DNA of 64,000 bases from an uncultured Desulfobulbia bacterium (GTDB lineage Bacteria > Desulfobacterota > Desulfobulbia > Desulfobulbales > S012-135), in NCBI GenBank assembly GCA_964423785.1, contig CAYRGZ010000001.1, positions 9,782 to 73,781 on the forward strand, given 5' to 3'. The translations under genes and the position numbers were made by a program. Numbering within the stretch: the stretch's first letter is position 1; each line of letters starts with the position of its first letter. Below the pieces are notes generated by a model, which was given only the letters and a program-made list of their open reading frames with translations, was not told the DNA's origin and searched no databases. Shown piece by piece: positions 21,090 through 59,443 of this stretch.

Positions 21090-21137
21090 TGGCGCGCCAG
21101 GGAGGATTCGAACCCCCGACCTACGGATTAGAAGTCC
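21090..21137 (-). repeat. attL: 48-bp duplicate of the tRNA-Arg 3' end (island boundary)
   Basis: TGGCGCGCCAGGGAGGATTCGAACCCCCGACCTACGGATTAGAAGTCC is identical to 33080-33127. Identity stops at position 49 (A vs G). Confidence 0.9.
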
Positions 21138-21248: not shown

Positions 21249-21277
21249 GTAAAAAGTGGGGACAGAGTGGGGACTGG
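21249..21277 (+). promoter_or_regulatory. Putative integrase arm-type binding site (left)
   Basis: The 29-bp GTAAAAAGTGGGGACAGAGTGGGGACTGG is identical to 32994-33022 and contains two GTGGGGAC half-sites. It lies ~110 bp inside attL, just upstream of int. Confidence 0.5.
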
Positions 21278-21356
21278 CGGGCGAAAACGGATTCGCGTTT
21301 TCATGGAATCCGTAGGTTTCCGTCCTGGGCCGAACCCCCGAGGAGACGACGGCAGC

Positions 21357-22592
21357 ATGCCCCGGTGGAAACCCACGAAGTACGAGGGCGTCCGATACCG
21401 TGAACACCCTACACGAAAGCACGGTATCCGTCCAGACCGTTACTTTGCCATCCGGCTCCAGATAAATGGTCGCCGCCACGAGGAAGGCGTGGGCTGGGAG
21501 AGCGAAGGCTGGACGGCTTCCAAGGCTGCCACCCTCCGGGCCGAACTGAAGCGAGCGGCCACCACCGGCGACGGCCCCGTGGCCCTGGCCGAGAAGCGGC
21601 GGCTGGCCGAGGAACGACGGCAACGGGAAGAGGCTGAGCGGCGACGGCGGGAACTGGAAGAAGTCACTTTTGCCGAATTCTTCCAGGACAATTACTTGCC
21701 GTGGACCACCGGCAACGGCAAGTCGGCCCGGTCGCTCCAGCGTGAACGCTCCCTTTTCCGGCTGTGGCTTGCCCCCGTGATCGGCGACCTTCTTTTCGGC
21801 GAAATCTCCCCCTTCCACATAGAAAAGATTAAGGCAACGATGCTGAAGGCCGGCCGGGCTCTTCGTTCGGTGCAGTATGCTCTGGCCCTGGTGCGGCAGG
21901 TGTGGAACCGGGCGCGGGATGCCGGCATCCACGACCTCCCGTGCCCGACCAGGAAGGTGAAGCTGGACACGAAGAAGCACGACAACCGCCGGATCAAGTT
22001 CTTGACCCGCGAGGAAGCGGCGGCCCTACTTGCGGAATGCCGGCGGCGAAGTGCAAACCTGCACGACATGGCCTTGTTGTCCCTGCATTGCGGGCTGCGG
22101 GCCGGGGAGATTTTCGGCCTGACCTGGGCCGACGTGGACATCACCCACGGCTTGGTCGTCCTGCGGGACACCAAGAGCGGCCGGACCCGTTCGGTGCCCA
22201 TGACCGAGGCGGTACGGACCATGTTCTGCGGCCGGGAACGGGGTAAGCCGACGGACCTTGTTTTCCCGGCGCGGGATGGTGGTCGGATCGAGCAGATTTC
22301 AAACGCCTTTGACCAGGCGGTGAAGGCCCTTGGTCTGAACGAGGGTGTCACGGACCGGCGACAGCGGGTTGTCTTTCACACCCTGCGCCACACCTACGCT
22401 TCTTGGCTTGTGGCGGCCGGGACCGACCTGTACACGGTGCAGCGGCTCCTGGGGCACCAGAGCATTGCCCTGACCGAGCGGTATGCCCACCTTGCCCCGG
22501 ACACGTTGAAGGCCGCGACACAAGCGCTGGAGCAGTACGTCAACGATACGCCGCCACGGCTGAACGTCGTCCCTGGAGGCCGGGGACGATGA
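21357..22592 (+). CDS. int: Tyrosine-type site-specific integrase
   Basis: ATG at 21357 follows GAGGAG. C-terminal catalytic motifs ...GLRAGEIFGLTWADV..., HTLRHTYASWLVAAGTDLYTVQRLLGHQSIALTERYAHL (R, HxxR, Y). The longer track ORF from 21267 was rejected. Confidence 0.9.
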   Translation: MPRWKPTKYEGVRYREHPTRKHGIRPDRYFAIRLQINGRRHEEGVGWESEGWTASKAATLRAELKRAATTGDGPVALAEKRRLAEERRQREEAERRRRELEEVTFAEFFQDNYLPWTTGNGKSARSLQRERSLFRLWLAPVIGDLLFGEISPFHIEKIKATMLKAGRALRSVQYALALVRQVWNRARDAGIHDLPCPTRKVKLDTKKHDNRRIKFLTREEAAALLAECRRRSANLHDMALLSLHCGLRAGEIFGLTWADVDITHGLVVLRDTKSGRTRSVPMTEAVRTMFCGRERGKPTDLVFPARDGGRIEQISNAFDQAVKALGLNEGVTDRRQRVVFHTLRHTYASWLVAAGTDLYTVQRLLGHQSIALTERYAHLAPDTLKAATQALEQYVNDTPPRLNVVPGGRGR

Positions 22593-22777
22593 AGGTCCGG
22601 GACATTATCCGGCTGATCGAGCAAGAGGGATGGGTGCAGGTACGCCAGCGGGGAAGCCATCGGCAATTCAAGCACCCTTCCCGGCCGGGGCTGGTGACCA
22701 TTGCCGGCCATCCCGGTGACGACCTGGCCCCTGGAACCTTGAAGAGCATCTTGAGACAAGCGGGGATCGAATCATGA
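22589..22777 (+). CDS. hicA: HicA-family toxin (type II TA, mRNA interferase)
   Basis: MKVRDIIRLIEQEGWVQVRQRGSHRQFKHPSRPGLVTIAGHPGDDLAPGTLKSILRQAGI is the canonical HicA/YcfA pattern. Its ATG overlaps the integrase stop (ATGA at 22589-22592). Confidence 0.88.
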   Translation: MKVRDIIRLIEQEGWVQVRQRGSHRQFKHPSRPGLVTIAGHPGDDLAPGTLKSILRQAGIES

Positions 22778-22989
22778 GAAACTTCGTGGTCATCATCGAG
22801 CAAGCAGAAGGCAACCTGTCCGCCTACGTGCCCGACCTGCCGGGCTGTGTCGCTACCGGCGCGACCGAGGACGAGGTGTTGCACAACATCAAAGAGGCCA
22901 TCGAGTTCCACCTTGAAGGTCTTGCCCTGGCAGGGATGCCCGTCCCTTCCAGCCGGGCCGTTGTCCGGGAGGTGGAGGTGGCGGCGTAG
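22774..22989 (+). CDS. hicB: HicB-family antitoxin (short form, 71 aa)
   Basis: MRNFVVIIEQAEGNLSAYVPDLPGCVATGATEDEVLHNIKEAIEFHLEG is the HicB/UPF0150 fold signature. ATGA overlap with hicA. Confidence 0.85.
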   Translation: MRNFVVIIEQAEGNLSAYVPDLPGCVATGATEDEVLHNIKEAIEFHLEGLALAGMPVPSSRAVVREVEVAA

Positions 22990-23287: not shown

Positions 23288-23785
23288 ATGTACGATATCA
23301 GCAACCTCGAAAAGCTGGCAGCAATTCATTTGAACAACAGGATTGATACGTTCTTTGACAACTTCCGCCTCGGCACCCTGCTCAACCGAGCGGGTATCCG
23401 TAAGCTCCGGGGCGTTTCGCTGGTCAAGCTGTTCAAGGCCATATTCATGCTGGCCTTCATCCGGGAGAACTTCTTCCGCGGTATCGTCCAGCAGGATCAG
23501 GGGTTCGGCAAGGATGCCGCCTACGCTCTGCTCCAAGGGGCCAACTACAACTGGCGCAAACTGCTGTTGCTACTGGCGGCCAAGCTCTGCGCGGCTTTCT
23601 ACCTGCTGACCGAGAAGGACAAGCGGAAAGTCCTGATGATCGATGATGCCACCTACGAGCGGCCTTATTCGCGGAAGGTAGAGTTGGTGGCGCGCGTCCA
23701 TGACAACTGCCGTAAACGGTTCACCAGGGGATTCAAAATGCTGACCCTGGTCTTGTCGGATGGAGTCAGGACGGGAACTTTCTGA
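23288..23785 (+). pseudogene. IS4-family (DDE) transposase, N-terminal fragment
   Basis: ...KVLMIDDATYERPYSRKVELVARVHDNCRKRFTRGFKMLTLVLSDG matches the first-Asp region of IS4-type DDE transposases. The ORF stops after 165 aa, before the rest of the catalytic domain. The flanking DNA is AT-rich. Confidence 0.6.
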
Positions 23786-23836: not shown

Positions 23837-26701
23837 TTAGATGTTCTCCACGCTGGATCGGTAGAGCCTTGCCAAATCCTCGTCCGATGCGCTTGGCGGC
23901 GCGAGCACGGTGCGGCTTAGCCGGCGCTTGCTTTCCAGCAAGGCGTGCAGGTTCTTGTCGAAGCTGTGCTGGCCGAAGCGTGGATGGATCGCCAGTGGCA
24001 GATGCACGTGGACGGTGCGCATCTGTCCGATCCGGTAAACGCGGTCCGTGCATTGGTCCTCGACCGCAGGATTCCACCAGCGCGTGAGATGGATCACATG
24101 ATTCGCCGCGGTGAGGGTGAGGCCCACCCCTCCAGCCTTGGGCGAGAGTAACATCACATCGAACTCCCCTGCGGCACCAGCCTGGAATTCATCGATCCGT
24201 GCTTGACGCCGGTGCCCGCTCACCGTGCCACTGATTCGTAGCGGCGGTCGTGAAAGTCCGTAGCGGCGTTGGAGATACGGAATGAGAACCTCTTGCATGT
24301 CGAGGAACTCCACAAAGAGCAAGGCCTTCTCGCCGGCCTCGGCAATGTCGTCGAGGACCCGCATCGTTGCCGAGAGACGGGCCGAGCGTGCCACGTCGGC
24401 ATCCGTCAATCCCTCGGCCCCGAGTTCACCTGCCAGCAAGGAGATCCGCCGCAGCCGGTGCAACACCTCCAGCATCATACCTCGTTGACCTTTACTATGC
24501 GCAGCGAGGCGCAGCGCCTCCTCGTAGGCGGATGCTTGTTCCGGCGGCATCAGTTCCTCGATTACCGATTCGCGTTTCTCCGGGAGGCCGTGAAGATGGT
24601 CTTCCTTCATGCGTCGCAACATCAGAGGCGGACGGGTATCTCGAGTGAGCTTTCCCGCCAGAGGCGCGGCCGCCTCAGGTGTGTTGAAGGCGGGCTTCTC
24701 GTAGTCCTGGTGGAAGTCCTTGAGTGCGCCAAGAAAACCGGGGCGTATCGCGTCCACGATGGACCAGAGATCGGCCAGTCGGTTTTCCACCGGCGTTCCC
24801 GTGAGAGCGAGAGTGAAATCGGCCTTTATCGATTTGGCCATTTCCGTCAGCCGGGCCGCTGGATTTTTGATTTTCTGCGCCTCGTCCAGCACCAGCACGC
24901 CCCAGTCGACGCTGAGGAAGATACGAATCCGGTCCCGTAGCGTCTCATAGGTGGTGAGCACCCAGTCGGCCTCGAACAACTTCTGCGTCTGTTCTCGGCG
25001 TGTCGCATGTAACAAGCGTTTGAGATGGGGGCCATACGCCCGTACCAGGATGCCGAGCCCCGGGGAGGCGAGGTGTTTGCGGCTTTCGGCCTCCCAGTTC
25101 TTGAGGAGACCCGTGGGGGCCACCACAAGGAACGGCTTGCGAGGCCAGGCATTACGAGCCATTTGTTCTTGAACCCAGGCGAGAAATCCAAGGGTCTGCA
25201 GCGTTTTTCCGAGACCCATGTCGTCGGCCAGAAGCGCCCCCGAACTCCCTGAGGCCCAATGGGTTTGGAGCCACTCGAGTCCTTCCGTCTGGTGTGGATA
25301 GAGTTGGACCTCGTGCAGCGGAGCCGGTATGCCGCCTATCTCTCCTCGGCGCGGAACAGGACTGGTTTCGAAACCGAGTTCCTCAAGGTTATCGATGATC
25401 ACCGGCACCAAGGCCGGGGCCTGTTTTTCCTTCCCGTCTGATGTGTTCTCCCTGGTGGACTTCGGTGAGCCGCCCACCACCCGCGCGAAGGCCTCCAGCG
25501 TCTCGTCGTCAACGAGGATTCGTTGGCCGCCGAATTCGATCTCTTGCTCTCCTCGTTCCCGCGCGTTGTGCAATTTTTCGATGATTTTGGGGAGGTCCTT
25601 GATCTGCACCTGATAAATGGCTCCTCCAGCCGGGACGCCGAGGAGGAGATCCTCTGGGGGCAGCCAAGTCTGCCGGGAGGGCATGATATAGGCGCAGACC
25701 TTGGGCCGCCATTTACCGAGGTGCCGCACCCGCGCGCTCAAAAATTCGGGCGTCTCCTGGAAGAGCACTTCGAGGTCGTCTTCCGCAAGGTCGTCGGCGA
25801 GACGTTCGGCCAGTATCGCCTGGGGGTTTGCGGCAAAAGCCCGTTGCTCTACCAGCGGACGGTCCTGGTATTCGCGTACCACCTTCAGAGCCTTGTGCAG
25901 GTGTTCGCCGATCACCACGTACCATCCGCCTTCAACGACGTAGCGACGTTGCGCTACAGGGAGGCGATGGAAGCGCTCGACGAAACTCGCTTGCGGTTCC
26001 GGCGGTAAAGATTGGTCGAAGGGGGTAGGTGGTTCCTCCGATGGTTCCTGCCGCTGGCCCCGGGAAAGCAGCACAGGATGGAAGGTCCCGTTGTCCGTGA
26101 AATCGAGGGTAAAGGCGTCGGAACGCACGATATTCATCGTGCGGAGGTGTTCGTCGATCACCGCATCTGCCGGTAGATGCCGCTTAAGCTCGGCCCAGAT
26201 GGTGAAACGTTCGTCGAGGTCCGCCGGCGGCGTTTCGTTGAAGGTATCCATGCCCGTGATCAGGGAGAACAGGGGGTCCAGCAGGGTATACCTCCTGTTT
26301 CCCACAGCGAGCAGGGGACCCTCTCGCTGCGCTCCCAGTACCGGCCGGCCGTCGTCGGTCAGGAGTTGGTAGTGGAAGCGGAAGCTCGGACTTGAAAGAA
26401 GCCCGGCCCCGCGGATACAGAGCCGGTAAGGGGCGGGGGGCGGGAGTCCCAGGCGTGCGAGCTCTATGGCATCTAGAGCGGCGATCTGAGAGGAGTTCAA
26501 CACCACCTCTTCGTGTTGCGTGGTATGCGCGGTCTCGTCCGCGATAAGGGCAAGCAGATGGCCAACGGACGCGGGCCCCCGTTTTCCATGCAACACGGAT
26601 GCACCCCACTCCTTGATCGGGACCCTGGAGCCGTCCCCCCTTTCGACCCAAAATCGTACGCTTCCTTGGTCGGATTGCCAATGTAGCCGTAGATCGTTCA
26701 T
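23837..26701 (-). CDS. zorD: ZorD, SNF2-family helicase/ATPase of type I Zorya
   Basis: SNF2 motifs LADDMGLGKTLQT (I), LVLDEAQKIKNP (II, DEAQ), LTGTPVENRLADLWS (III) and LLSPKAGGVGLTLTAANHVIHLTRWWNPAVEDQCTDRVYRIGQ (V/VI). ATG at 26701 overlaps the zorC stop (TAATG). The track ORF extends to a GTG at 26776. Confidence 0.85.
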   Translation of the reverse strand: MNDLRLHWQSDQGSVRFWVERGDGSRVPIKEWGASVLHGKRGPASVGHLLALIADETAHTTQHEEVVLNSSQIAALDAIELARLGLPPPAPYRLCIRGAGLLSSPSFRFHYQLLTDDGRPVLGAQREGPLLAVGNRRYTLLDPLFSLITGMDTFNETPPADLDERFTIWAELKRHLPADAVIDEHLRTMNIVRSDAFTLDFTDNGTFHPVLLSRGQRQEPSEEPPTPFDQSLPPEPQASFVERFHRLPVAQRRYVVEGGWYVVIGEHLHKALKVVREYQDRPLVEQRAFAANPQAILAERLADDLAEDDLEVLFQETPEFLSARVRHLGKWRPKVCAYIMPSRQTWLPPEDLLLGVPAGGAIYQVQIKDLPKIIEKLHNARERGEQEIEFGGQRILVDDETLEAFARVVGGSPKSTRENTSDGKEKQAPALVPVIIDNLEELGFETSPVPRRGEIGGIPAPLHEVQLYPHQTEGLEWLQTHWASGSSGALLADDMGLGKTLQTLGFLAWVQEQMARNAWPRKPFLVVAPTGLLKNWEAESRKHLASPGLGILVRAYGPHLKRLLHATRREQTQKLFEADWVLTTYETLRDRIRIFLSVDWGVLVLDEAQKIKNPAARLTEMAKSIKADFTLALTGTPVENRLADLWSIVDAIRPGFLGALKDFHQDYEKPAFNTPEAAAPLAGKLTRDTRPPLMLRRMKEDHLHGLPEKRESVIEELMPPEQASAYEEALRLAAHSKGQRGMMLEVLHRLRRISLLAGELGAEGLTDADVARSARLSATMRVLDDIAEAGEKALLFVEFLDMQEVLIPYLQRRYGLSRPPLRISGTVSGHRRQARIDEFQAGAAGEFDVMLLSPKAGGVGLTLTAANHVIHLTRWWNPAVEDQCTDRVYRIGQMRTVHVHLPLAIHPRFGQHSFDKNLHALLESKRRLSRTVLAPPSASDEDLARLYRSSVENI

Positions 26702-28140
26702 TATGGCATCAGCATCCGGTGCCACATACGGATACCGGTATTCCGGCGGATGAGATCGGCGAGGGTCGCTTGCCACCTGCCGTTCTCGGCGCCGTGGTGC
26801 ACTCCTTCGTGGTCGGCCCCTAGGATGAGGTCCTCGCGGCTGTATTCACGCCGATAAGGACTCGGAATATATCGATCTGGCCCCCCTTCGTCCACCCAAA
26901 CGCGGTATTTCCCCATGTGGTTCCATTCGGTGATGACCAGGTTTCCGACACGCAGCAGCAGCGCCGCATGATCGGCCTGGATGCCGGGGCCGCGTTTGAG
27001 TCGCCCGTATCGGTTGGAGTCCCCCCCGAGCATCCGGCTCGCTTCGGGCACGATTTTAGGGTGTAAGACGACCCAGGCATCCCGGATATGGCCGGCCCGC
27101 AGATAAGCGGTCCAGAAAGCCTTACGGTACTTCCAGTGCCGCCTTGCGGTCTCGTCCGTCCTGGCTACGTACTCCAGCAGAAGAAAAAAGTCGTCCAAGG
27201 TTTCCTTTACCAGCCAACTCTGCACGACCGCTCGTGCTTCGCTCGAGACGCCCACCCATCCTCCAGCCCCGAGCCGTGGGTCTCCGAAATAGGCGAGCAC
27301 GAACTCCTTGATCTGTTTTCGAAAGGGGTCTGGAAGGGTGCGTCGGGTGAAGGGCAGGAGTAAAGCGTGGGCTAGGCCGACCTTGAGGGCAGGCTGCTTG
27401 AAACGCAGTTCGTTCCCCGCAGCATTGGGAACCAGCGCAAAGGCAAGAAGCCTTTCGAGACGCTCCAGTCCGAAGTCGGCAAGACCCAGGCGCTGCTCGC
27501 AAAGGGCAAGGCCCCGCTCGAAGGCGGCCTCCACCAAACCCTGGCGGGAGAGGTGCCCAGTCAAGGTGGCTGCGGCGAGGTGTTTGTCGATCGAGGCCGT
27601 GCTGTCCAGAAGTTCGGTAATCAGTTTTTCTGGAGCGTCAGCGGCAAGAATGCCGAAACGTTCGTCCGCCTCGACGAGTCTCCTGCAACGCCGTTGTGTA
27701 GAGCCCGCGAGGAGCGTACGCACCCTCGAACGGACCGGATCGAAGATAGACGTTCCACGTGGATAGGCCTTCAGGAAGGCCTGGCAAAGGGCGATGATAA
27801 CGTCAGGGATGGCTTCCTGGGTGACACGCTCAAGGTACGCTCGCAACAGTGACTCGTGTAGAGCAAGGGGATGTTGTCCATTCCAGTTTTCGAAGATTAC
27901 CCAGGCCGCGAGACGCAGCTCCAGCCGGCTGAAATCTTGAAGGGACCTCTTTCGCTGTGCCACATCCTGCAACATCCGCCAAATTTCGTCCAGGTCCTGC
28001 CGAGAAGGGATCCTTACGGGGACTTCGGAAAACTGCGCGATGATCTGTTGGTGGGCCTGGGCGAGCTTTTTCGGCTCCCTGGGGACCGGTTCTCGGAATG
28101 GGAGACGCCAGTAGTGTAGTTGCTCCTTCAAGCTCGTCAC
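26701..28140 (-). CDS. zorC: ZorC-like protein (expected EH-signature domain) of type I Zorya
   Basis: 479-aa soluble protein in the third position of a zorA-zorB-X-SNF2 operon, with a GTGA overlap with zorB. I cannot verify the EH_Signature domain by eye, so the call rests on synteny and size. Confidence 0.65.
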   Translation of the reverse strand: MTSLKEQLHYWRLPFREPVPREPKKLAQAHQQIIAQFSEVPVRIPSRQDLDEIWRMLQDVAQRKRSLQDFSRLELRLAAWVIFENWNGQHPLALHESLLRAYLERVTQEAIPDVIIALCQAFLKAYPRGTSIFDPVRSRVRTLLAGSTQRRCRRLVEADERFGILAADAPEKLITELLDSTASIDKHLAAATLTGHLSRQGLVEAAFERGLALCEQRLGLADFGLERLERLLAFALVPNAAGNELRFKQPALKVGLAHALLLPFTRRTLPDPFRKQIKEFVLAYFGDPRLGAGGWVGVSSEARAVVQSWLVKETLDDFFLLLEYVARTDETARRHWKYRKAFWTAYLRAGHIRDAWVVLHPKIVPEASRMLGGDSNRYGRLKRGPGIQADHAALLLRVGNLVITEWNHMGKYRVWVDEGGPDRYIPSPYRREYSREDLILGADHEGVHHGAENGRWQATLADLIRRNTGIRMWHRMLMP

Positions 28141-28940
28141 AATCGTTTTTCCAGCTGTCGTATCACGGTGAGATCGGTACGAGGAGGTGTCATGATGAAC
28201 CGTAGGTCGATGCGACGATTGGCCGCATCGGGAGTCGGTACCGGGTGGGGATGGCGTGGTCGCCCTTCCCCATAGCCGACGACACCGAATACCGGGAACC
28301 CATTCTGGTTCCGAAGCTCAGCAAGAGTTGGTTGCATGGCCAACACCATGGTGCGGTAGGTATACATGGCGCGTTGGGCTGAGAGGTCCCAATTGTCGCG
28401 ATAGCGTCCCCTCGTATAAGGGACATTGTCGGTATGGCCCTCAATGAAGACTGATTCCAACCTGCCCGCGTAGCGTTCGTCACATCTTTGTGGAGGAGTT
28501 GGTGCCGCCGCGTAACATGGGAGGATATCTTCGAGAACCGCAGCGATTACGGCCAATTTGCGCTTTTCAGGAGGCGGCAGTTCAGCTTTTCCACTCGGGA
28601 AGTGGATCGCCTGTTCGGTCAGGTGCAAGATGCCGTGCTCGGTGTCTACCTCCACCTGAATTCCTTGGGCCTCTAGTCGATGGCGAATGAGGCTCAACAT
28701 ATCGGCACGAAGGGCTCGGGTATTGGTCATATACTCAAGAGTTTTCGCCAATCGATCCCGCTCCTGCATCGTTTTGGCCGTCTCTTTTTCGTGCATGGCG
28801 GTCGCCCTTTGAAAGCTTAGAACAAAGGCCATGAGAGTAATAATGAAGATAAAGAGCAGTGAAGCCATCAAGTCGCTGATAGATATGAAGTAGTTTGCCT
28901 CTTCGCCTTCTGATAATGTTTGCTCCACGACTTCCTTCAT
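28137..28940 (-). CDS. zorB: ZorB, MotB/OmpA-like stator subunit of Zorya
   Basis: Single N-terminal TM helix with a conserved Asp (ISISDLMASLLFIFII) and a C-terminal OmpA/MotB peptidoglycan-binding motif (FIEGHTDNVPY...NWDLSAQRA). ATGA overlap with zorA. Confidence 0.85.
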   Translation of the reverse strand: MKEVVEQTLSEGEEANYFISISDLMASLLFIFIITLMAFVLSFQRATAMHEKETAKTMQERDRLAKTLEYMTNTRALRADMLSLIRHRLEAQGIQVEVDTEHGILHLTEQAIHFPSGKAELPPPEKRKLAVIAAVLEDILPCYAAAPTPPQRCDERYAGRLESVFIEGHTDNVPYTRGRYRDNWDLSAQRAMYTYRTMVLAMQPTLAELRNQNGFPVFGVVGYGEGRPRHPHPVPTPDAANRRIDLRFIMTPPRTDLTVIRQLEKRL

Positions 28941-30715
28941 CGCTCAGTCCTCTGAATGGGCCATTGTCGCTGCCAGTCCAGTTTCGACACGGTTTGCTGC
29001 AAACGCGAGACCGCCTCAGTGAGATCCTCGCCTCCATCTCCAATCTCTTTGGCAACCCCAGCCAGCGTGGAGCTGATTTCCGCCATATAGCCACTCACCT
29101 TCGCCAAGAATTCTTCCCCTGCCTGGTGATAACCGTCCAACCATTCTTGCAATTCCCGGAAGGTGTGGGCCAAGGATTCGTCCACTTTGTCGAAACGGGC
29201 CTCATAGTTTTGCCAATTGGCCGTGAGTTGGTCTGCAATCTGCCGATAATCCTGCACAGCCCTTGCGATGGAGCCTGCCGCCTGCTCCACTTCCTTAACG
29301 ACTTCCCGGGCTTGGTTGACCGCCCCCTGGGCCTTTTCCGCTGCCTCGCAAAAAGCGGCAGCCGTCCGCTCCAGTGTGCCGTGAGACCGTTTACTGGAGG
29401 CGATCAGTTGATCAAGGTACTCCATGAGTTCCGTGGCGTTGCTCAGAACCGCTTGGATATCATCTGCGGAGTTGGAAAGATTGCCTACCGTTTCTTTGAA
29501 CGTTTCGGTGGTTTTGTCGAGTTCCTCGGCCATCCTACCCACGGAGGCATCAAGCCGGGAGAACATTTTTTCGACCGAATCCGTGAATTCCTTCCGCAGT
29601 GTTGTAGCACTTTCCTCAAGGAGTTCGGCCATGCTTTGCGCAGAGTCTTCGGATTGCCGACGCATCTGCTCTTGTTGCTCGGTTACCGTTTCGATCTGCC
29701 GGGTAAGTATGGTCGAGAGGCCTTTGATGGTATCGGCCAGATCATGAAGTTCCTCCCCAGCGATTCCGTGGAGAGCCGTTATGAACTCGGTGGACAAGGT
29801 GCGCAAGCTCTCCTCGTCGGCCTGGGCTTGCTGGCGGCCAAATTCCTCGACCGCTTTCCACACCTTGTCGAGAGCCTTTGTTAATGGCGCAGTTACCGAA
29901 GCGTCTAACGTGCCAGGCATGGCGCTGGCGATGGCCTTCTCTAGAGATTCCTTGAGCTGGAAAGAAAGTTGTTCGGTGAACTGCTCCAACACCAACGATT
30001 GCTGTCGGCTTTGGCTCAGCATGTTCTGACTCAGCTGCTCAAGGGTGATTCTGCGTAGGCGCTTGTGCAGACCACTCACCCATTCCTGACGTAATCTACC
30101 AAAACGGTATAATCGGCGCTTCTCGAACCCCGAAAAGAGAAGCGATGTGATGAGTCCAACGATGGAGGTCAAGAAGGCCAACGAGGCTCCTCCCAGCAGG
30201 TGTTGCAAGGCTACGTGCGCCAGTTGCGGCTTTGCGAGACCATTGCCAGCGAGATGAATACCCCCAGCAAGGCCCACGAATGTTCCCAGAATACCGACAC
30301 CGGTTAAGAGGTTGGGAAGCGCATTGTAATATCGAAGATTGATCTGACTGCGCAACAGAGCATCCTCGGAGAAGAAGGCCGCTGCGCTCTGGGAATGGTA
30401 GATCACGGTTTCAGGATCGACCGCCGTTGGAAATAGCAAGGTCTCCCTGAACTCATTCCATGAATTCCGTAAAAAATCCATTTTGCTAATACTTTCATCT
30501 AATTCATGGAATCGTATAGCCATGTCATTCGCATCATCAAATTTTTCAAGTATGCTATTTGCTTCTCTCATGCAATGAAGAATAGGGTCGAAGATGTTTT
30601 TGAATCGCCAACGTGAATAGATAAACCATAAAAATATAATAATACAAAATATTAGGATGCCCCATAGAGAGGTGACTGCTCTCGCAAGAAAATCGATGAT
30701 GTCGAGGAAAATCAT
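28937..30715 (-). CDS. zorA: ZorA, MotA/ExbB/TolQ-like proton-channel subunit with long coiled-coil tail (Zorya)
   Basis: N-terminal TM helix, then MotA/ExbB-type helices (LPNLLTGVGILGTFVGLAGG; ASLAFLTSIVGLITSLLFSG), followed by ~370 aa of heptad-rich, E/Q/A/L-rich sequence. 592 aa. Confidence 0.85.
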   Translation of the reverse strand: MIFLDIIDFLARAVTSLWGILIFCIIIFLWFIYSRWRFKNIFDPILHCMREANSILEKFDDANDMAIRFHELDESISKMDFLRNSWNEFRETLLFPTAVDPETVIYHSQSAAAFFSEDALLRSQINLRYYNALPNLLTGVGILGTFVGLAGGIHLAGNGLAKPQLAHVALQHLLGGASLAFLTSIVGLITSLLFSGFEKRRLYRFGRLRQEWVSGLHKRLRRITLEQLSQNMLSQSRQQSLVLEQFTEQLSFQLKESLEKAIASAMPGTLDASVTAPLTKALDKVWKAVEEFGRQQAQADEESLRTLSTEFITALHGIAGEELHDLADTIKGLSTILTRQIETVTEQQEQMRRQSEDSAQSMAELLEESATTLRKEFTDSVEKMFSRLDASVGRMAEELDKTTETFKETVGNLSNSADDIQAVLSNATELMEYLDQLIASSKRSHGTLERTAAAFCEAAEKAQGAVNQAREVVKEVEQAAGSIARAVQDYRQIADQLTANWQNYEARFDKVDESLAHTFRELQEWLDGYHQAGEEFLAKVSGYMAEISSTLAGVAKEIGDGGEDLTEAVSRLQQTVSKLDWQRQWPIQRTER

Positions 30716-31089
30716 ACCGTCAGTCCGTAAACTTTCACGTTGTCGGCTATCCGATGGGCGGCTGGGTTCGACAGTTCCAGCTAGTCCTGGGTTTTCGGCC
30801 GAAAATCAAGACCCCGGCGCAATCCCGCTTCTGGCGTGGGGTTCGGCTGGCACGATTTTTTCGCGTGTGCCTACGTCATTGCACCTGTTTTCTGCACTCG
30901 GTCATTCGCTCCGCTCACCACCTGCTGAATCCCGAAAACCCGCTTGGGGAGCGGGATTGCGAGCGATTTGAGCAAGCTGACCGCCCCCTTGGGCAGCTCG
31001 TTTGCCTGAATTGCGTATTCCGATGAAAATGATCACCCATTCCGACGAAATCGATCACCGTGCGGAGCGAAGCGGCGCTGGTGGAAAAA

Positions 31090-31467
31090 TCATACCGTCA
31101 AGTGATCGTTTTCAGCAAGTGGCGACCGTATCTTCCGTTGTGAGTCTCCCTTGAGTTTCAGCCGATGGGCGTTGTGAATGATCCGGTCAAGGATAGCATC
31201 GGCGAGAGTGGGGTCTGGTATGCGCTGGTGCCACTCGGCCACCGGTACCTGGGTCACCAGGGCGGTGGAGTTCACGTTGTAGCGATCATCGAAAATTTCA
31301 AGGAGATCCCTTGCCTGGGCGGCTGAGAGTGGATCTCGCAGCCAGTCGTCGATGATGAGGAGGTTGAACTTGGCCAGTGTGTTGAGCAGCTTTGGGTAGG
31401 ACCCGTCGGCGTGACTCTGGGTCAGCTCCTGGATGAGTCGCGATGTCCGGGCATACCGGACGGTGAG
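31090..31467 (-). pseudogene. IS21-family IstB helper ATPase, C-terminal fragment
   Basis: ...FNLLIIDDWLRDPLSAAQARDLLEIFDDRYNVNSTALVTQVPVAEWHQRIPDPTLADAILDRIIHNAHRLKLKGDSQR carries the IstB Walker-B to C-terminus region. It is fused in frame to an unrelated transposase in the 563-aa track ORF. Two ~20-bp tandem repeats lie downstream (about 31017-31060: TTCCGATGAAAATGATCACC / TTCCGACGAAATCGATCACC), like IS21 multiple terminal repeats. Confidence 0.7.
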
Positions 31468-32879
31468 TCCTTGGCGGCAGGCGGCCTGGCGTTCCATCAT
31501 GCGCTCCAGCAAGAGGGCCAGGACGCAGATTTTCACATGGGCCTCGATACGCCGGGGAAGCCAGTGGTAGACCGGCATGATCTTCAGCTGGGTGCGCTTG
31601 AGCGACCGAAAACACCGCTCGATCACCATGAGCGAGCGGTAGCCTGTGGCCGCATCCTCCACCGTGAGCGTGGGGTCGTTGGTTTCAACCACCCACTTGC
31701 CGTCGTACCGCTTCGCATCCTGGACCGCTTTGCGGTCAATCCGGAGCTTGCCCTTGTCGGTCACCGTGAGATAGGGACCGAAGCGGCGGGAGGCCAGCAG
31801 CTCCACCGCCCACTTGCGGGAGGCATCCCGGTCCTTGTGCCGGGCGAGCTCTTCTTCGAGCAGATGGACGATCTCCGCCCGGTGCTCCTGCTGCCGCTTG
31901 GCCTCCTGCGGGTTGAAGCACAGGACGTAACGCTTGCCTGTGCTCACGACGACTTCCTTGGCGAACAGGTTCTCGCTGATCTTCCGGTACCGGCCCGGGG
32001 CGGAGAGGACTTCGTCTCCGATCTCCTTGACGCTGCGCATCCGGCTGGCCAGGAGATAGGTGCCGCACGCCTTGGCGAGTTCCTTGCGGTTCCCCGCCGA
32101 GTTCATGCCGGCGTCGGCCACGAACAAGGCCCGTCCCAGGTTCCAGCCGCGCAGGTCCTTCTTGACGGTTTCGACCGTCGTGAAATCGGACGTATTGCCG
32201 GGGAACACCCAACTCTTGACCGGGAACCCCTCGCGGGTGACAGCCAGGGCCACGACCACCTGGGGCGCCCAGAAGCCCTCCTTGGCATGACCATACCGGC
32301 GCAGTTCGTCTTCCTCGTCCACCATGAACGAGACCGTGGTGGTGTCGTAGAAGATCACGTCCACGGTGAGGTTCATCAGGTTTGCAACCTGAAAGAAGAT
32401 CTCCCGCTCGATCTCGGCCGCATGCTCGGCCAGTACGTTCATGGCCTCGTACATCTGCCGCAGCTTCAGGTCCTGACACTCCGGCAAGTACACCGTATCG
32501 AGCCACCGCTCCCAGACGCCGAGCTTCGATTCCGGCTGACAGAGCCGATTGGCCACCATGGCCAAGAGCGCCTTGTCGTACGGCACGTTCTTGCTCCGGG
32601 AAAGCCGACGTATGGTCTTGCCGATACCGAGGCGTTCCCAGAGGACCGCCGTAGCCACGACCGTGCCGTACTCCAGGGTCCTCTTGAGCTTGACGTCCTT
32701 GGGCAGGCAGCCCGCTCGCAGTCCTCGTCCTTGGCAGGGTCGATCACCTCGACACCGCAGACCCGGGCGATGGAGCGGCAAAGCCGGACCAAGGCCTCGC
32801 GGTCCAACTGATCGGCGCGGCCGAAGTTGCGGAACTTTCTATCCGGTTGAAACGACGAGAAAAAATTTCGCGGCCCCAT
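31468..32879 (-). pseudogene. IS1634-family (IS4-like) transposase, frameshifted and 3'-truncated
   Basis: The body ...FYDTTTVSF...ALFVADAGMNS...YRSLMVIERCFRSLKRTQLKIMPVYHWLPRRIEAHVKICVLALLLERMMERQ is IS1634-type. The N-terminus (MGPRNFFSSFQPDRKFRNFGRADQLDREALVRLCRSIARVCG...) lies in another frame (ORF 32466-32879). The C-terminus is replaced by the istB fragment. Confidence 0.7.
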
Positions 32880-32946
32880 AAAAGTCGACCTACAAACCGA
32901 AAACTCTGGCCAAACCGAAAACTCCGGCCGGACAAGGACAAAGTAT

Positions 32947-32993: not shown

Positions 32994-33022
32994 GTAAAAA
33001 GTGGGGACAGAGTGGGGACTGG
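32994..33022 (+). promoter_or_regulatory. Putative integrase arm-type binding site (right)
   Basis: 29 bp identical to 21249-21277, located ~60 bp inside attR. Confidence 0.5.
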
Positions 33023-33079
33023 GGACCGAAAAGGCGAAAAGTCCTTAGCGGAATAGGGCTGCTAACTCCTTGATTTTAT

Positions 33080-33156
<77 letters not shown>

Positions 33157-35359: not shown

Positions 35360-36859
35360 TCAACTCTTCATCTCCCTGGGAGATATCCCGTACCGCTTCA
35401 TCTTGGCGTAAAGGGCGGTTTTGCCGATCTGCAGGGCTTGCGTAACCGCCTGGACGTTACCGTTGTGCAGCCGTAGGGCTCCGGCGATGATTTTACTCTC
35501 CAGGATGGCGAGCGATTCCTTGATGGGTTGAGCGAGCATTGCCGGAGTGATGGCAGCGAGTTCTTTGTTCAATATGCGGTTCTGGGTCGAGAAGTCCAGA
35601 TCTCGTACGGAGAGCGTGTTGGTTTTGGCCATGAGGACGGCGCGCTGGATGACGTTCTCCAACTCGCGAATATTGCCCGGCCAATCGTGTCGCAAGAGAA
35701 GATCGAGAATGTCGTTGGGGATGAATTCGATCTCCTTTTTGAAGGCGGTTCGGTACTTGCGGATGAAATGGGTGGTGAGTGGAATGATGTCTTCCTTGCG
35801 TTCGCGTAAGGGAGGCAGCCGCAGGTTGATGACATTGAGTCGGTAGAAGAGATCCCGGCGAAATCGGCCCTCCTCCACTGCGGCCATGAGATCGGCGTTG
35901 GTGGCGGCGATTACCCGAACGTCGACCTTGATGGGCGTGGTGCCGCCGACCCGGATGATCTCGCCGTTTTGCAGAACGCGCAAGAGAGCTGCCTGCATTT
36001 TGGGGCTGATGTCGCCGATTTCGTCCAGAAAGATGGTGCCGCCGTCAGCAATCTCGAATTTACCCTTGCGGCAGGTGACCGCACCGGTGAAGGCCCCTTT
36101 TTCGTAACCGAAGAGATCGCTTTCCAGCAGGCTCTCCGACACGGCGGCACAGTTGAATTTTAGATAGGTGCGGTTGGCCCGCGAGCTGTGCCGGTGGATG
36201 AGATCGGCGACTAATTCCTTGCCGGTGCCGGATTCGCCGGTGATGAGGACGGTGGCGTTGGTGTCTGCCACCTGGTAGATCATTTCCCGTAATTCGCGGA
36301 TGGCCTTGCTTTCGCCGACCATCTCGTCCGGTTTCTGGATTCGGCTGAGCTCTTTTTTCAGGATTGAGATTTCCTGGACGAGCAGGTCGCGGGTCTGTTC
36401 GCTCTCCTTCAGATCGCGAATTTTTTGTTCCAGAATCCGTTCGATGTTGGTGTTGAACTCGGCGATCTCGAGTTCATGCTGCTTGCGGGTGGTGATGTTG
36501 CGCATCGCCATCATCACCAGGGTGTCCCCCTGGTACCCCTCGAAGGGCGCGAAGGTGTATTCGACGTAGATGTCGCCGATCTTTTTCTCGATGAGTTCGT
36601 TATTCGTCTTTCCCTGCCGGCTGAGGTGGACCGGACAAACAGTGTCGCACGGCTCCCGCCGGTGGTGCATGACCTCGAAACATCGTTTGCCGCGCCAGTC
36701 GCCGAAGGTGTCGATGGCGCTCTTGTTCATATCCTCGATGATATAGTCTCCCCGGATCAGGAAGAACATGTCGGACATGATTTCGTAGAACGCCGCCCGG
36801 TTCCGGATCACCCGGTTCAGTTCATCCTTCGTCTTTTGGAGTTCCTGATGCGGATCCAT
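35360..36859 (-). CDS. Sigma-54-dependent transcriptional regulator (PAS sensor, AAA+, Fis-type HTH)
   Basis: [19 protein letters not shown] (Walker A), [15 protein letters not shown] (GAFTGA loop), C-terminal HTH ...[19 protein letters not shown] and an N-terminal PAS-like region. The first ATG is at 36859; the track start is TTG. Confidence 0.88.
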
Positions 36860-37128
36860 GCGATTCAGAGGCCAGAGAGTAGTATGGGTAGGAGACGGGA
36901 AATGGAAACCCGATATTTGCTGCCGGGTTGGGGACGTACCTTTCTTTTTGTTTATAGCGGATTTTTGTCGTTGGGACAATTGTAATTTCCGAAAAAACGG
37001 AAAAATTGATGATGCGTTTGGAGGAATCGCTATCAGTTGCCGGCTTGGGGCAGAAATACAAAGGGCCCTGATAGCCCGTTGAAAACGGCCGTCATGGCAT
37101 GGAGTTTTCGTCGGCCGGAAGCGGGATG

Positions 37129-38451
37129 CTAAGCCTGGACGATTTTGTCGTCGTCGGCAACCTGGTGGTAGACGCCGCGGGTATCGACGATGAGGCGGGC
37201 GTGACGGCGGATGAATTCGTAGTCGTAGGCCGAATGATCGGTGGCGATGAGCACGCAGTCGGCTCTTTCGATATTTTCCGCCGTGAGCGGCGTGCTCTCG
37301 TCAGTGTAGGAGTAGCGTCGGCCGGGCCAGAGGCGCGGAATGTGGGGATCGTTGTAGAGTACGGTGGCACCCTTGGCGGCCAAGAGATCCATCAGCTTGA
37401 AGGATGGCGATTCGCGTGGATCGTCGACATCCTTTTTGTAGGCGACACCGAGCAAGAGGATAGTTGCTCCCTTGATAGAGCGGCCTTGCTGATTCAGGGC
37501 CTCCATGGTGCGTTCCACCACGTAGTAGGGCATGGCGGTGTTGATCTCGCCGGCCAGCTCGATGAACCGGGTGGTGAAGTCGTACTCCCGCGCCTTGGAG
37601 GTGAGATAGAAGGGGTCGATGGGGATGCAGTGACCGCCGAGGCCGGGACCGGGGTAGAAGGGCATGTACCCGAAGGGCTTGGTGCTGGCCGCCTCGATGA
37701 CTTCGAAGACGTCGATGCCCATCCGGTGGCAGAGGATCTTAAGCTCGTTGACCAGGGCGATGTTGACAGAGCGGAAGATGTTTTCGAGCAGTTTGGTGAG
37801 CTCCGCCGCCTGGGTGGAAGAGACCGGCACCACCCGTTCCAGAGCGGTGCGATACAGCGCGGCGGCGAGGTCGGTGGAGTGCGGTCCGACCCCGCCCACC
37901 ACCTTGGGGATATTGGCGGTGGCGAATTTGGGGTTGCCGGGATCTTCCCGTTCCGGCGAGTAGGCGAGGGCGAAATCGACCTCCGCCGTAAGGCCGGCCG
38001 CCTCGAGGATCGGCTGCAAGACCTCCACCGTGGTGCCCGGGTAGGTGGTGCTCTCCAGGGTGACGAGCTGCCCCGGCCGCAGTACCTCGGCAATGGCCTT
38101 GGCGGTGGCCTCGACGTACTGCAGGTCGGGTTCGCGGTTCTTGGTAAGCGGGGTGGGCACGCAGATGAGCAGCGCGTCCGGTTCGCGCAATCGGGCAAAA
38201 TCGCTGGTGGCTGCAAATTTTCCCTCTTGCACGAAGCCGAACAGTTCGTCGGCCGGGATGTGCTTGATGTAGGACTCGCCCCGGTGGAGCTTTTCCACTT
38301 TGCCCCCGTCGAGGTCGAAACCGAGGACCGACACCCCTTTGCGTAAAAAGGTGAGCGACAGGGGAAGCCCCACATAGCCGAGACCGATGACGCCGAGAAG
38401 AAAGTCCCTGGATTCGATTTTCTTTGCCAGCGTGTCGAGGGGAGAAGTCAT
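37129..38451 (-). CDS. Nucleotide-sugar dehydrogenase (UDP-GlcNAc/ManNAc 6-dehydrogenase family, WbpA/TviB/WecC-like)
   Basis: N-terminal Rossmann motif [12 protein letters not shown] and full-length 440-aa UDPG_MGDP_dh architecture. Confidence 0.82.
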
Positions 38452-38500
38452 GGAGCAGCCTCCGGTTGGGAAGTGTGGGAGTCGTGAGAGTGAGAACCGA

Positions 38501-39460
38501 TCAACCCGCTCGGTCGCAATGCCAGGCCAGTGTCTTGGCGATGCCGGCCGTCAGGTCGTGGGCGGGGGCGAAACCGAGTTCTTGCCTGGCTTTGTCGATG
38601 ACGAGACAACTGCGCCGGATGTCGCCGGGCCGGGCCGGACCGCGGCCTGGGTTGCCGAGCTCGGCCGGGATGCTGGGTCGAGCCTCGCGTACGGCCTGGA
38701 AAATGATATCGAAGAGATCGGCGGTGCGGGTCGCCACGCCGGTGCCGATGTTGTACGCCTCACCCGAGCCCCGTTCCAGGGCCAGGAGGTTGGCCTGTAC
38801 CACATCGCCGACGAAGCAGTAGTCCCGGCTCATGCCGCGCGGCTCCTCGGGATAGTGGTAGATGGTGCACGGCTTGCCGGCCAACAGTCGGTCCATGAAC
38901 AGAGAGACGACGCCGGCCTCGCCGTGCGGCACCTGGCGGGGCCCGTAGACGTTGGCATAGCGCAGCACCGTGTAGTCGAGGCCGTACTGGTGCCGGTAGA
39001 AGGCGAGATACTGTTCCGAGACCGCCTTGGTGATCGCGTAAGGAGACAAAGGACGGGGCGGAGCGGCTTCGCTGGTTGGGTACTCGTCCGCCTCCCCGTA
39101 AATGGCGCCGCCCGAGGAGATGAAGATCACCTTGCTCACCCCGGTCTTGCGGCTTGCTTCCAGCAAGTTGATGAGTCCACGGACGTTGACGTCGGCGTCG
39201 AAGTCCGGGTCATCCACCGACGCGGGCACCGACATCTGGGCCGCGTGGTGGTTGACCACATCGAACCGTTCCCGTTCGAATACCTTGTGGATTTCGGAGG
39301 CCCGCACGTCCATGAGATAGAACCGGGCGCGGGGGGTGATGTTTTCCCACTTGCCGGTGAACAGGTTGTCGATGACCACTACCTGGTGGCCGGCCTCGAT
39401 GTAGGCATCGACGACGTTGGAGCCGATGAAGCCGGCGCCGCCGGTAACGAGAATTTTCAT
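38501..39460 (-). CDS. NAD-dependent nucleotide-sugar epimerase/dehydratase (SDR)
   Basis: MKILVTGGAGFIGSNVVDAYIEAGHQVVVIDNL... plus the SDR catalytic YxxxK region (SPYAITK). Confidence 0.85.
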   Translation of the reverse strand: MKILVTGGAGFIGSNVVDAYIEAGHQVVVIDNLFTGKWENITPRARFYLMDVRASEIHKVFERERFDVVNHHAAQMSVPASVDDPDFDADVNVRGLINLLEASRKTGVSKVIFISSGGAIYGEADEYPTSEAAPPRPLSPYAITKAVSEQYLAFYRHQYGLDYTVLRYANVYGPRQVPHGEAGVVSLFMDRLLAGKPCTIYHYPEEPRGMSRDYCFVGDVVQANLLALERGSGEAYNIGTGVATRTADLFDIIFQAVREARPSIPAELGNPGRGPARPGDIRRSCLVIDKARQELGFAPAHDLTAGIAKTLAWHCDRAG

Positions 39461-39487
39461 GGTTTGTCTCCGCTTACTGCCCTGTTG

Positions 39488-41323
39488 CTATTCCACGGTC
39501 ACCGATTTTGCCAGGTTGCGCGGCTGGTCCACGTCGCAGCCGCGGCGGTTGGCGATCTGGTAGGCGAGGAGTTGCAGGGGGAGGACGTAGAGAATGGGGT
39601 TCAAGTCCTCGTGGATGGCCGGCAAGGTGATGGTGGCCTCGGCGAGTTGGTCGAGTTTGGCATCCCCCTCGGTGCCCACCAGGATGAGCCGACCGCGGCG
39701 GGCCTTGACCTCTTCGACGTTGGAAATGATCTTCTGGTAGACACTGTCGCGGGGCACGAGAGCCAAGACCGGCATGTCGCGGTCGATGAGGGCGATGGGA
39801 CCGTGTTTGAGTTCGCCGGCTGCGTATCCTTCGGCGTGGATGTAGGAGATCTCTTTCAGTTTCAGGGCCCCTTCCAGAGCGATGGGAAAATTGCAGCCCC
39901 GGCCGAGATAGAGAAAATCCCGGCAATGCATGTAGGTTTCGGCAAGTTCTTCCACCTTGTCTTCCAGGCGGGGCAGTTCCTCCTCGAGGATCTGGGGCAG
40001 GTCGAGGAGCTGGTCGGCGAGCGTTTTACGGGTGGCGGTGTCCAGGGTGCCGCGCTCTTGGGCAAGAAACAGGGTGAGGAGGAAGAGAGCGGTGAGCTGG
40101 CTGGTGAATGCCTTGGTGGATGCCACGCCGATCTCGGGGCCGGCATGGGTGTAGATCGTACCATGCGCCTCCCGGGTGATGGTGGAGCCCACCACGTTGC
40201 AGATGCCAACGATCTTGGCGCCGAGGTCCTTTGCTAATCGAAGGCCGGCCAGAGTGTCCGCCGTTTCTCCGGATTGGGAGATGGGAATTACCAAGGTGGA
40301 GGAATCGACGAGCAGGGTGCGGTAACGGAATTCCGAGGCGATATCCACTTCCACCGGAATACGGGCGTATTTCTCGATCCAGTATTTGCCGACGAGGGCG
40401 GCATGCCAGGAGGTGCCGCAGGCGACGAAGGCGATGCGCGAAATTTTCTTGAGTTCGTCCGGAGAGAGACCGATTTCCGGCAATTGTACCTCTCCGGTCT
40501 CCGGATCAAGCCGGCCCCGGAAGGTGTTGAGTACCGCCTGAGGCTGCTCGTGGATCTCCTTGAGCATGAAATGCTTGTAGCCGGCCTTCTCGGCCATGCC
40601 GGCGCTCCATTCGATGGTGGTCGGCTTTTTCGTCACCGGCGTGCCGCTTGCAGCTTCCAATACCATGATACGGCCTGCCTCAAGGATGGCGAGTTCCCCG
40701 TCGTCGAGAAAGATCACCTCGCGGGTGTACGGTAACAGGGCCGGAATATCCGAGGCCAGGAACGATGCCTTGTCGCTGATGCCGAGCACGAGCGGGCTCT
40801 GGTGGCGGACCGCCACCAGCCGGTCGGGGCAATCGGCGGCGATCACCCCCAGGGCGTAGGAGCCCTCCACCCGGGCGACGGCGGCCCGCACGGCGGCCAC
40901 CAAGTCGGTGGTGAAATGTTCTTCGATGAGGTGGGCCAGGACCTCGGTATCGGTATCCGAGCTGAACCGGTGGCCACGATCCATGAGTTCCTGACGCAGG
41001 GAATGATAGTTTTCGATGATGCCGTTGTGGACGATGACCAGACGGCCGGTGCAGTCGGCGTGCGGATGGGCATTGTCCTCGCACGGGGCGCCGTGGGTGG
41101 CCCAACGGGTATGGCCGAGCCCGAGGGTGGCGCGGGTTTCCACCTCGTCCATCCGTTCTTCCAGATTGGCGAGCTTTCCCGCGCACCGGTAGCGGTGGAG
41201 TTCACCGTGTTCGAAAAAAACGATACCGGCGGAGTCGTACCCCCGGTACTCGAGTCGTTTGAGCCCTTCGAGGAGCACGGGAACCGCCCGGCGATTGCCG
41301 ATATAGCCAACGATGCCGCACAT
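39488..41323 (-). CDS. glmS: Glutamine--fructose-6-phosphate aminotransferase
   Basis: MCGIVGYIG N-terminal nucleophile Cys, two SIS domains and the C-terminal ...PRNLAKSVTVE. 611 aa. Confidence 0.95.
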   Translation of the reverse strand: MCGIVGYIGNRRAVPVLLEGLKRLEYRGYDSAGIVFFEHGELHRYRCAGKLANLEERMDEVETRATLGLGHTRWATHGAPCEDNAHPHADCTGRLVIVHNGIIENYHSLRQELMDRGHRFSSDTDTEVLAHLIEEHFTTDLVAAVRAAVARVEGSYALGVIAADCPDRLVAVRHQSPLVLGISDKASFLASDIPALLPYTREVIFLDDGELAILEAGRIMVLEAASGTPVTKKPTTIEWSAGMAEKAGYKHFMLKEIHEQPQAVLNTFRGRLDPETGEVQLPEIGLSPDELKKISRIAFVACGTSWHAALVGKYWIEKYARIPVEVDIASEFRYRTLLVDSSTLVIPISQSGETADTLAGLRLAKDLGAKIVGICNVVGSTITREAHGTIYTHAGPEIGVASTKAFTSQLTALFLLTLFLAQERGTLDTATRKTLADQLLDLPQILEEELPRLEDKVEELAETYMHCRDFLYLGRGCNFPIALEGALKLKEISYIHAEGYAAGELKHGPIALIDRDMPVLALVPRDSVYQKIISNVEEVKARRGRLILVGTEGDAKLDQLAEATITLPAIHEDLNPILYVLPLQLLAYQIANRRGCDVDQPRNLAKSVTVE

Positions 41324-41350
41324 ACGAGGGTGTCCTTTTTGGTGTCCTTT

Positions 41351-42253: not shown

Positions 42254-42311
42254 GGGTTCTCCAACAAAAGTTGGTTGAAAGAAAGGGTGCCGTTACCGCG
42301 GTGTCAGTGGG

Positions 42312-43886: not shown

Positions 43887-43932
43887 GCTTGGTTACGGGG
43901 TGAGGGTTGGGAATGGTCGGCCGTCTGCCGGT

Positions 43933-45204: not shown

Positions 45205-45238
45205 GGCGATTTCCAAGCGCGGCTCAAGGGAAAGGCGG

Positions 45239-45796: not shown

Positions 45797-46028
45797 TTTA
45801 TTGCCTCCTTCGGAACGGCGAGGAGACCGGAGGGCGTTCGGAAAGCCGGATTTTTTTGTTCAAAAAAACGGAATAACGCAAATGCCCTTTGTCTCCGGAT
45901 TGGTAACCCACCAGAATCAAAAAGTGGTGTCCCATTATAACCCAAATCTGTTATCATGTGTCGTACTAGGGTGCAATCGGTTTGTGGGGTATCTGCGGCA
46001 TGTTACTATTTTATGAGAGGGAGCAACG

Positions 46029-57643: not shown

Positions 57644-57690
57644 CCGGCCGCCAACCAGCCGGTAAAACCTGCCCGTCGACCGTCAAAATT

Positions 57691-57790: not shown

Positions 57791-57873
57791 AATTCCGACG
57801 GGATTGCCGACGCCTTTGCCTTCCTTGTTTCTTTATTCCTTTGATTCCAACATGTTGTGTTGATTTTTGTGCG

Positions 57874-57889: not shown

Positions 57890-57915
57890 TCCTTGTTGTG
57901 GCAAGGAGAGCCGCC

Positions 57916-58647: not shown

Positions 58648-58658
58648 GGAGAGCAATC

Positions 58659-59441: not shown

Positions 59442-59443
59442 GT

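Follow-up and report, generated by a model that had tools for sequence, protein, structure and literature searches.

A very probable type I Zorya anti-phage system of compact architecture on a tRNA-Arg island of an uncultured Desulfobulbia bacterium

The question raised by this locus is whether four overlapping genes within a 64,000-nucleotide stretch of DNA from an uncultured Desulfobulbia bacterium (contig CAYRGZ010000001.1 of assembly GCA_964423785.1, positions 9,782 to 73,781; this whole stretch is the window in what follows, and positions are counted from its first nucleotide) constitute a complete type I Zorya anti-phage system, zorA-zorB-zorC-zorD, as had been proposed from inspection of the sequence (the original prediction). 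The analysis indicates that this is very probably so, with the four genes forming an intact system carried as cargo of a 12-kb, integrase-bearing island at a tRNA-Arg gene in a Desulfobulbales-like host. The assignment to type I agrees with the PADLOC searches, in which type I models were the best match for all four proteins: ZorA against ZorA1 (1e-40), ZorB against ZorB1 (5e-88), ZorC against ZorC1 (4e-117, end to end along a 462-position profile) and ZorD against ZorD1 (1019 bits, residues 52-977 of its 979-amino acid (aa) open reading frame (ORF)). The type II (ZorABE) and type III (ZorABFG) Zorya systems have a tailed ZorAB motor in common with this locus but differ from it, as no ZorE, ZorF or ZorG gene is present. 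These types were rejected because the PADLOC-DB ZorA2 and ZorA3 models scored far more weakly (1.7e-15 and 1e-7) than ZorA1.

The four genes occupy positions 23837-30715, all on the minus strand and co-directional, with start and stop codons overlapping between neighbours. The ORF listing gives zorA at 28937-30715 (592 aa, ATG start), zorB at 28137-28940 (267 aa, ATG start) and zorC at 26701-28140 (479 aa, GTG start), followed by zorD at 23837-26701 (954 aa), the start of which overlaps the zorC stop codon. This layout is as originally described: the 4-nt overlaps ATGA between zorA and zorB and GTGA between zorB and zorC are implied by the ORF coordinates, and the TAATG at the zorC/zorD junction (26699-26703) was read directly from the sequence. 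The start of zorD required some attention, since the ORF is open over 23837-26776 and encodes 979 aa with an upstream GTG or 954 aa with the ATG at 26701, while public gene calls place the start 35 codons later, giving 919 aa (start region 26596-26701). Alignments with ZorD homologues begin at residues 1-6 of the 954-aa form, and this start is therefore better supported than that of the 919-aa form. With respect to base composition, zorA, zorB and the upstream spacer (28000-31000) have a G+C content of 0.50-0.55 versus approximately 0.61 in zorC, zorD and the rest of the window.

ZorA comprises a MotA/ExbB-like motor (residues ~1-222) and an all-helical cytoplasmic tail of ~370 residues (~223-580). 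The channel-helix peptides quoted in the original prediction were located at residues 133 (LPNLLTGVGILGTFVGLAGG) and 177 (ASLAFLTSIVGLITSLLF). Among proteins of known structure, the sequence matched those of Shewanella (8VVN, 8vvn_C, 2e-17) and Escherichia coli (8QYD, 8qyd_A, 7e-16), and PF28082 (ZorA-like_t1) is recorded for the identical protein in public assemblies. The check set in the original prediction, whether the protein scores as ZorA or as a generic ExbB, came out in favour of ZorA. In the AlphaFold2 model, the predicted local distance difference test score (pLDDT) exceeds 90 over residues 1-220, and residues 225-578 form helices; the top Foldseek matches of this model were 8qyh, 8qyd, 8qyk, 8qyy and 8vvn (E 5e-9 to 1e-5). 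ZorA chains were the only significant matches in the PDB, with TolQ and ExbB at E>0.04. Glu88 and Glu91 align to the Ca-site residues Glu86 and Glu89 of the E. coli protein, and the channel-helix residues Thr145 and Ser184 are invariant among 50 homologues. Conservation is concentrated in the motor core and in the tail tip (~500-570), the middle of the tail being variable in both sequence and length. The tip contains invariant Arg507, Phe508 and Asp512 and aligns to residues 645-727 of E. coli ZorA. It was also observed that the last ~22 residues of the protein (571-592, window 28937-29002; RLQQTVSKLDWQRQWPIQRTER) have no counterpart in most relatives of the clade, this part of the alignment consisting of 70% gaps.

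ZorB has one N-terminal transmembrane helix with Asp23, which lies in the predicted motif SDLMASLLF (located at residue 22), and a C-terminal OmpA-type peptidoglycan-binding domain (GHTDN...NWDLSAQRA) that passes the Pfam OmpA cut-off (32.3 bits, cut-off 27.2). It matched the Shewanella ZorB (8vvn_B, 1.3e-20) with Asp23 aligned in the SDLM motif. ZorD consists of an N-terminal domain of ~450 aa followed by an SNF2-type ATPase, for which the Pfam families SNF2-rel_dom and Helicase_C both pass their gathering scores. The previously quoted motifs GLGKT, DEAQ and TGTPVEN are present at residues 496, 606 and 634, with motif VI at residue 883, and the E. coli ZorD structure (8qy7_A) was matched at 2.8e-80. 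Truncation of ZorD by an adjoining insertion sequence (IS) fragment of the IS4 family was considered and rejected, since alignments with homologues and with E. coli ZorD run up to the last 3-16 residues of the protein.

ZorC was the protein for which no domain had been recognised by eye, and a search for the EH signature in it had been set beforehand as a check of the type I assignment. The protein matches PF15611 (EH_Signature) with 131.5 bits (6.7e-38) against a cut-off of 27.5. A single-sequence search of the PDB with ZorC gave no match; a profile built from 21 homologues reached the E. coli ZorC chain 8r68_A at 1.2e-8, with Glu405 aligned to Glu400 of the E. coli protein. The spacing from Glu405 to His448 is 43 residues, as it is between Glu400 and His443 in E. 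coli, and His408 and His448 are invariant in the 21 homologues. The AlphaFold2 model of ZorC (pLDDT 88.5) had 8R68 as its single significant fold match in the PDB.

Whether the four genes are inherited as a block was investigated by scanning genomes, one for each GTDB species, with a ZorA alignment. This gave 80 loci, and the 67 that include 6.5 kb or more of sequence downstream of zorA were evaluated. In 62 of these, zorC and then zorD followed zorA in the same order and on the same strand, and zorB was also detectable by tblastn in 48. The loci without a detectable zorB are mostly from Poribacteria, where a ZorB-sized gap remains. Hosts of the related loci belong to the Gammaproteobacteria, Thermodesulfobacteriota, Latescibacterota, Acidobacteriota, Gemmatimonadota, Poribacteria and Bacillota. 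This co-conservation bears on a different interpretation of the locus, namely that zorA and zorB are a housekeeping stator of the MotAB, ExbBD or TolQR type that happens to lie beside an unrelated SNF2 helicase. In favour of such a reading, TolQ and ExbB are distant relatives of the ZorA motor (Foldseek E 0.04-1), ZorB has a MotB-like OmpA domain and the host is a flagellated organism (flg genes, 57.6-62.6 kb). However, a ~370-residue helical tail is foreign to MotA, ExbB and TolQ, the best sequence and fold matches are all Zorya proteins, and the genes overlap, are co-conserved and lie on an integrase island rather than in a flagellar or Tol locus. The PADLOC scores, the conservation of the locus and the Foldseek matches together effectively refute a housekeeping stator, which is considered extremely improbable.

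Against the interpretation as a type I Zorya system stand a number of observations. All four proteins fall under the curated equivalog or subfamily cut-offs of NCBIfam (score/cut-off: ZorA_1 127.5/190, ZorA1 85.8/750, ZorB1 22.8/400, ZorC 22.3/490 and ZorD 337/1500). The system is therefore far from the Zorya systems that have been studied experimentally; the NCBIfam models for Zorya have the enterobacterial branch at their centre. Identity to the solved structures in the fold alignments is likewise low, at 19-23% for ZorA and 16% for ZorC. No experimental test of a member of the compact clade to which the locus belongs (described below) was found in the literature searched, and the host is uncultured. 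No convincing promoter was found 5′ of zorA, the sole sigma-70-like match there overlapping the zorA start codon, and IS debris is located 374 bp upstream of this gene. Finally, ZorC (479 aa) stops at the end of the core domain of E. coli ZorC and is without the linker and C-terminal globular domain of that protein, a difference which the original prediction did not mention.

The absence of a recognisable promoter raises the possibility that the operon is a silent or decaying passenger, intact on paper but unexpressed or non-functional, with the flanking IS insertions having removed its promoter or terminator. It is bordered by IS1634/IS21 debris upstream of zorA and, on the other side, by the IS4 fragment, which ends 52 bp past the zorD stop codon, and when the operon was scanned for promoters and terminators, nothing exceeded the level expected from shuffled sequence. 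The region 5′ of zorA (30716-31089, minus strand) has nevertheless been kept over 374 bp up to the IS debris and is the presumed promoter region, and in a host outside the enterobacteria little weight attaches to a scan for consensus promoters. In addition, all four ORFs are full length with the essential residues conserved, and the identical sequence was present in three independent samples. A silent passenger is thus regarded as improbable, and an intact system remains the preferred interpretation.

The intact type I system proposed here was compared with those for which structures are available. With the E. coli type I system (PMC11946911) it shares the order zorA-B-C-D, a ZorA motor with Ca-site glutamates, a long helical tail and a homologous tip, a ZorB with the transmembrane Asp and an OmpA-like domain, a ZorC with the EH motif at equal Glu-to-His spacing, and a ZorD with an SNF2 core and DEAQ box. 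Identity to this system is low, so that E. coli ZorB and ZorC were both missed by single-sequence searches of the PDB. The best PDB sequence match for ZorA and ZorB was the ZorAB of Shewanella sp. ANA-3 (PDB 8VVN; Mariano et al. 2025, PMC11890865), the ZorB of which aligns in the SDLM motif (Asp24 versus Asp23 here) and in the peptidoglycan-binding motif GHTD...NW.LS..RA.

The proteins differ from those of the studied systems mainly in length. ZorA has 592 aa here and 729 aa in E. coli, with tails of ~370 and 507 residues, respectively; in Shewanella it has 696 aa with a tail of 461 aa (residues 236-696). If the published length of 70 nm for the E. coli tail scales linearly, the tail would here reach approximately 51 nm. 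ZorC has 479 aa as compared to 560 aa, the linker and C-terminal globular domain being found only in the E. coli protein, and ZorD has 954 aa as compared to 1080 aa, the difference of ~125 aa lying in the N-terminal half. The original description of ZorA as comparatively short is correct with respect to the E. coli and Shewanella proteins but not with respect to the clade, the median length among the 254 closest homologues being 583 aa (interquartile range 568-607). As 592 aa is typical of the clade, the present ZorA is not specially informative on tail length, and the suggestion that it would be so does not hold beyond what applies to the clade as a whole.

These lengths define a compact branch of type I Zorya with a ZorA of ~580 aa, a ZorC of ~470 aa consisting of the EH core alone and a ZorD of ~950 aa. 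The nearest named relatives of the locus, compact loci of Thioalkalivibrio, Thiohalocapsa, Deferrisomatales, Vibrio and Salinisphaera, have the same component sizes and operon order and are annotated by NCBI as 'anti-phage ZorAB system protein ZorA'. Identity to them is only 31-43% for ZorA, 34-46% for ZorC and 48-56% for ZorD. The best ZorA matches in the GTDB-species scan were 32-38% identical and the nearest ZorA overall only 43%, and the nearest named relatives are gammaproteobacterial, which fits horizontal acquisition. The phylum of the present host (Thermodesulfobacteriota) also differs from that of the hosts of these compact loci, in keeping with horizontal transfer by means of the island.

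The model of the E. coli ZorC core extends to Pro478 of the 560-aa protein, the C-terminal globular domain of which is needed for DNA binding and defence according to Hu et al. (PMC11946911). The present ZorC is an EH-signature protein reduced to the core domain, with Glu405 and His448, and the ZorC of most related loci ends within ~10 aa of the same point. The PADLOC ZorC profiles fall into sets of ~460 and ~560 positions; only the short ones match the protein end to end, the long ones matching partially. The C-terminal globular domain is characteristic of the E. coli branch and does not enter into the PADLOC or Pfam definition of the family. These observations, together with a ZorA tail of ~370 aa versus 507 in E. 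coli and 461 in Shewanella, could be taken to mean that the compact type I Zorya is functionally distinct, its core-only ZorC engaging DNA or recruiting effectors in a manner unlike that of E. coli. The missing contact might, for example, be supplied by the ZorC core, the ZorD N-terminal domain or the ZorA tail tip, and the shorter tail might be co-adapted with its partners. The wide conservation of the compact form argues for function. On the other hand, the difference may be trivial if the ZorC core alone binds DNA well enough, and otherwise the machinery does not differ from that of the studied systems, down to every catalytic and ion-path residue. A distinct mode of action is therefore put forward only tentatively.

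Similar caution applies to the possibility, which is entertained here without being favoured, that the compact branch works without the ZorC C-terminal DNA-binding module and with a tail shorter by about one quarter. If this is true, neither that module nor a long tail would be a universal requirement of Zorya, and the length of the tail would not be fixed but would have adapted together with the effector set. The locus, or any other member of the clade, would then represent a natural minimal type I Zorya in which the recruitment of ZorC and ZorD by the tail tip could be dissected. It should be noted that PADLOC or DefenseFinder would flag the present system automatically and that finding it is no discovery in itself; the locus adds a member to a known family, and the compact architecture of the clade is only a mildly new angle. 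Its main use is comparative, as the clade provides natural type I systems with ~370-residue tails and a core-only ZorC, which are relevant to the conclusion reached in published work that an intact tail and the C-terminal domain of ZorC are indispensable. The locus is also a further Zorya system in a phylum and host with little-studied defence systems, situated on a neatly delimited mobile island of 12 kb.

By homology to the systems of E. coli (PMC11946911) and of Shewanella and Serratia (PMC11890865), a mechanism may be proposed for the present proteins. Five ZorA and two ZorB subunits would assemble into an ion-driven rotary motor in the inner membrane, the Shewanella motor having been modelled as Na+-driven (PMC11890865). 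It is expected that the entry of a phage, through its perturbation of the cell envelope, would be sensed by the motor, with the OmpA-like domains of ZorB becoming anchored to peptidoglycan. Ion flow through a putative pathway of ZorB Asp23 and the ZorA Thr and Ser residues would turn the ZorA pentamer together with its ~370-residue helical cytoplasmic tail. The tip of the tail would then recruit and activate the DNA-binding ZorC and the autoinhibited SNF2-type ATPase/nuclease ZorD, which would degrade the incoming phage DNA near its site of entry. What the analysis demonstrates is that the genes are intact, that they belong to the family by sequence and by predicted fold, that residues proven essential in E. 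coli are present, that the operon is co-conserved and how the island is built; the 5:2 assembly, the activity and the phage targets are, like each step of the mechanism, inferred.

The original prediction also placed the operon on a tRNA-integrated island together with a toxin-antitoxin module and IS debris, and all of these elements were found. The island, of ~12 kb, is delimited by exact direct repeats of 48 bp, its attachment (att) repeats: the proximal repeat is the 3′ end (33080-33127) of a tRNA-Arg(TCT) gene located at 33080-33156 on the minus strand, and the distal repeat at 21090-21137 is an exact copy of it. From left to right, the island contains the integrase gene, hicA-hicB, the IS4 fragment, zorDCBA on the minus strand and the IS1634-IstB remnant. 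The tyrosine integrase (21357-22592, plus strand) has 411 aa in public calls, with the ORF open from 21267, and matches Pfam Phage_integrase at 2.4e-32. Its stop codon is overlapped by the toxin-antitoxin pair hicA (22589-22777, plus strand, 62 aa) and hicB (22774-22989, plus strand, 71 aa), for which the domains HicA_toxin and HicB_lk_antitox were available as precomputed Pfam matches on an identical contig. The IS4-family transposase fragment (23288-23785, plus strand) is a 165-aa ORF corresponding to the N-terminal third of the protein (NCBIfam NF049925, 3.4e-45, profile positions 2-149 of 449).

At the other end of the operon, the IS debris consists of a 563-aa ORF (31090-32781, minus strand) in which an IS1634 transposase is in frame with the C-terminal half of an IS21 IstB (Pfam DDE_Tnp_1 and IstB_IS21; NCBIfam NF033559, 6e-107, and NF038214, 1e-36). 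The IS1634 part is nearly full length (profile positions 35-472 of 483), and the ORF looks like the product of one IS having inserted into another, with read-through. The flanks of the island are chromosomal, with a 2-thiouracil desulfurase gene and lipopolysaccharide genes on one side and mutM on the other. Identical sequence was found only in metagenome assemblies and one metagenome-assembled genome at NCBI. The placement of the host among Desulfobulbales-like Thermodesulfobacteriota is based on relatives of its seryl-tRNA synthetase, which is 76-79% identical to those of Desulfobulbaceae metagenome-assembled genomes, Thiovibrio and Desulfolithobacter. Three related metagenome contigs (L002-L004) were searched for an allele free of the island; none spans the site, as each stops at the tRNA repeat or within an IS.

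Immediately within both boundaries of the island lie copies of a 39-nt direct repeat (21249-21287 and 32994-33032, 92% identical), each copy containing two AGTGGGGAC units 11 bp apart. This 9-mer occurs four times in the whole window, always within the 39-nt repeats, where 0.63 occurrences would be expected by chance. As one of the copies lies just 5′ of the integrase gene, it is possible that the repeats are arm-type binding sites of the integrase. Two tandem units of 18 bp (CAAACCGAAAACTCYGGC) are also present at 32893-32928, between the IS debris and the tRNA gene.

Elsewhere in the window, a flagellar basal-body cluster (57640-62559, plus strand) encodes two rod proteins of the FlgE/F/G type (flgF/flgG-like) along with flgA, flgH and flgI. 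This makes it probable that the host is motile, and true MotAB stators would be expected in it in addition to ZorAB. An exopolysaccharide-type cluster at 35360-48314 contains genes for a sigma-54 activator, a UDP-glucose dehydrogenase, an epimerase, a GlmS-like amidotransferase, a ParA/MinD-like ATPase, a Wzz/GNVR chain-length protein, a beta-barrel porin and a tetratricopeptide repeat (TPR) protein of 761 aa. A further gene at 49648-52293 on the minus strand encodes a protein of 881 aa which combines a DHH domain and two CBS domains with a poly(A) polymerase/CCA-adding head and its RNA-binding domain.

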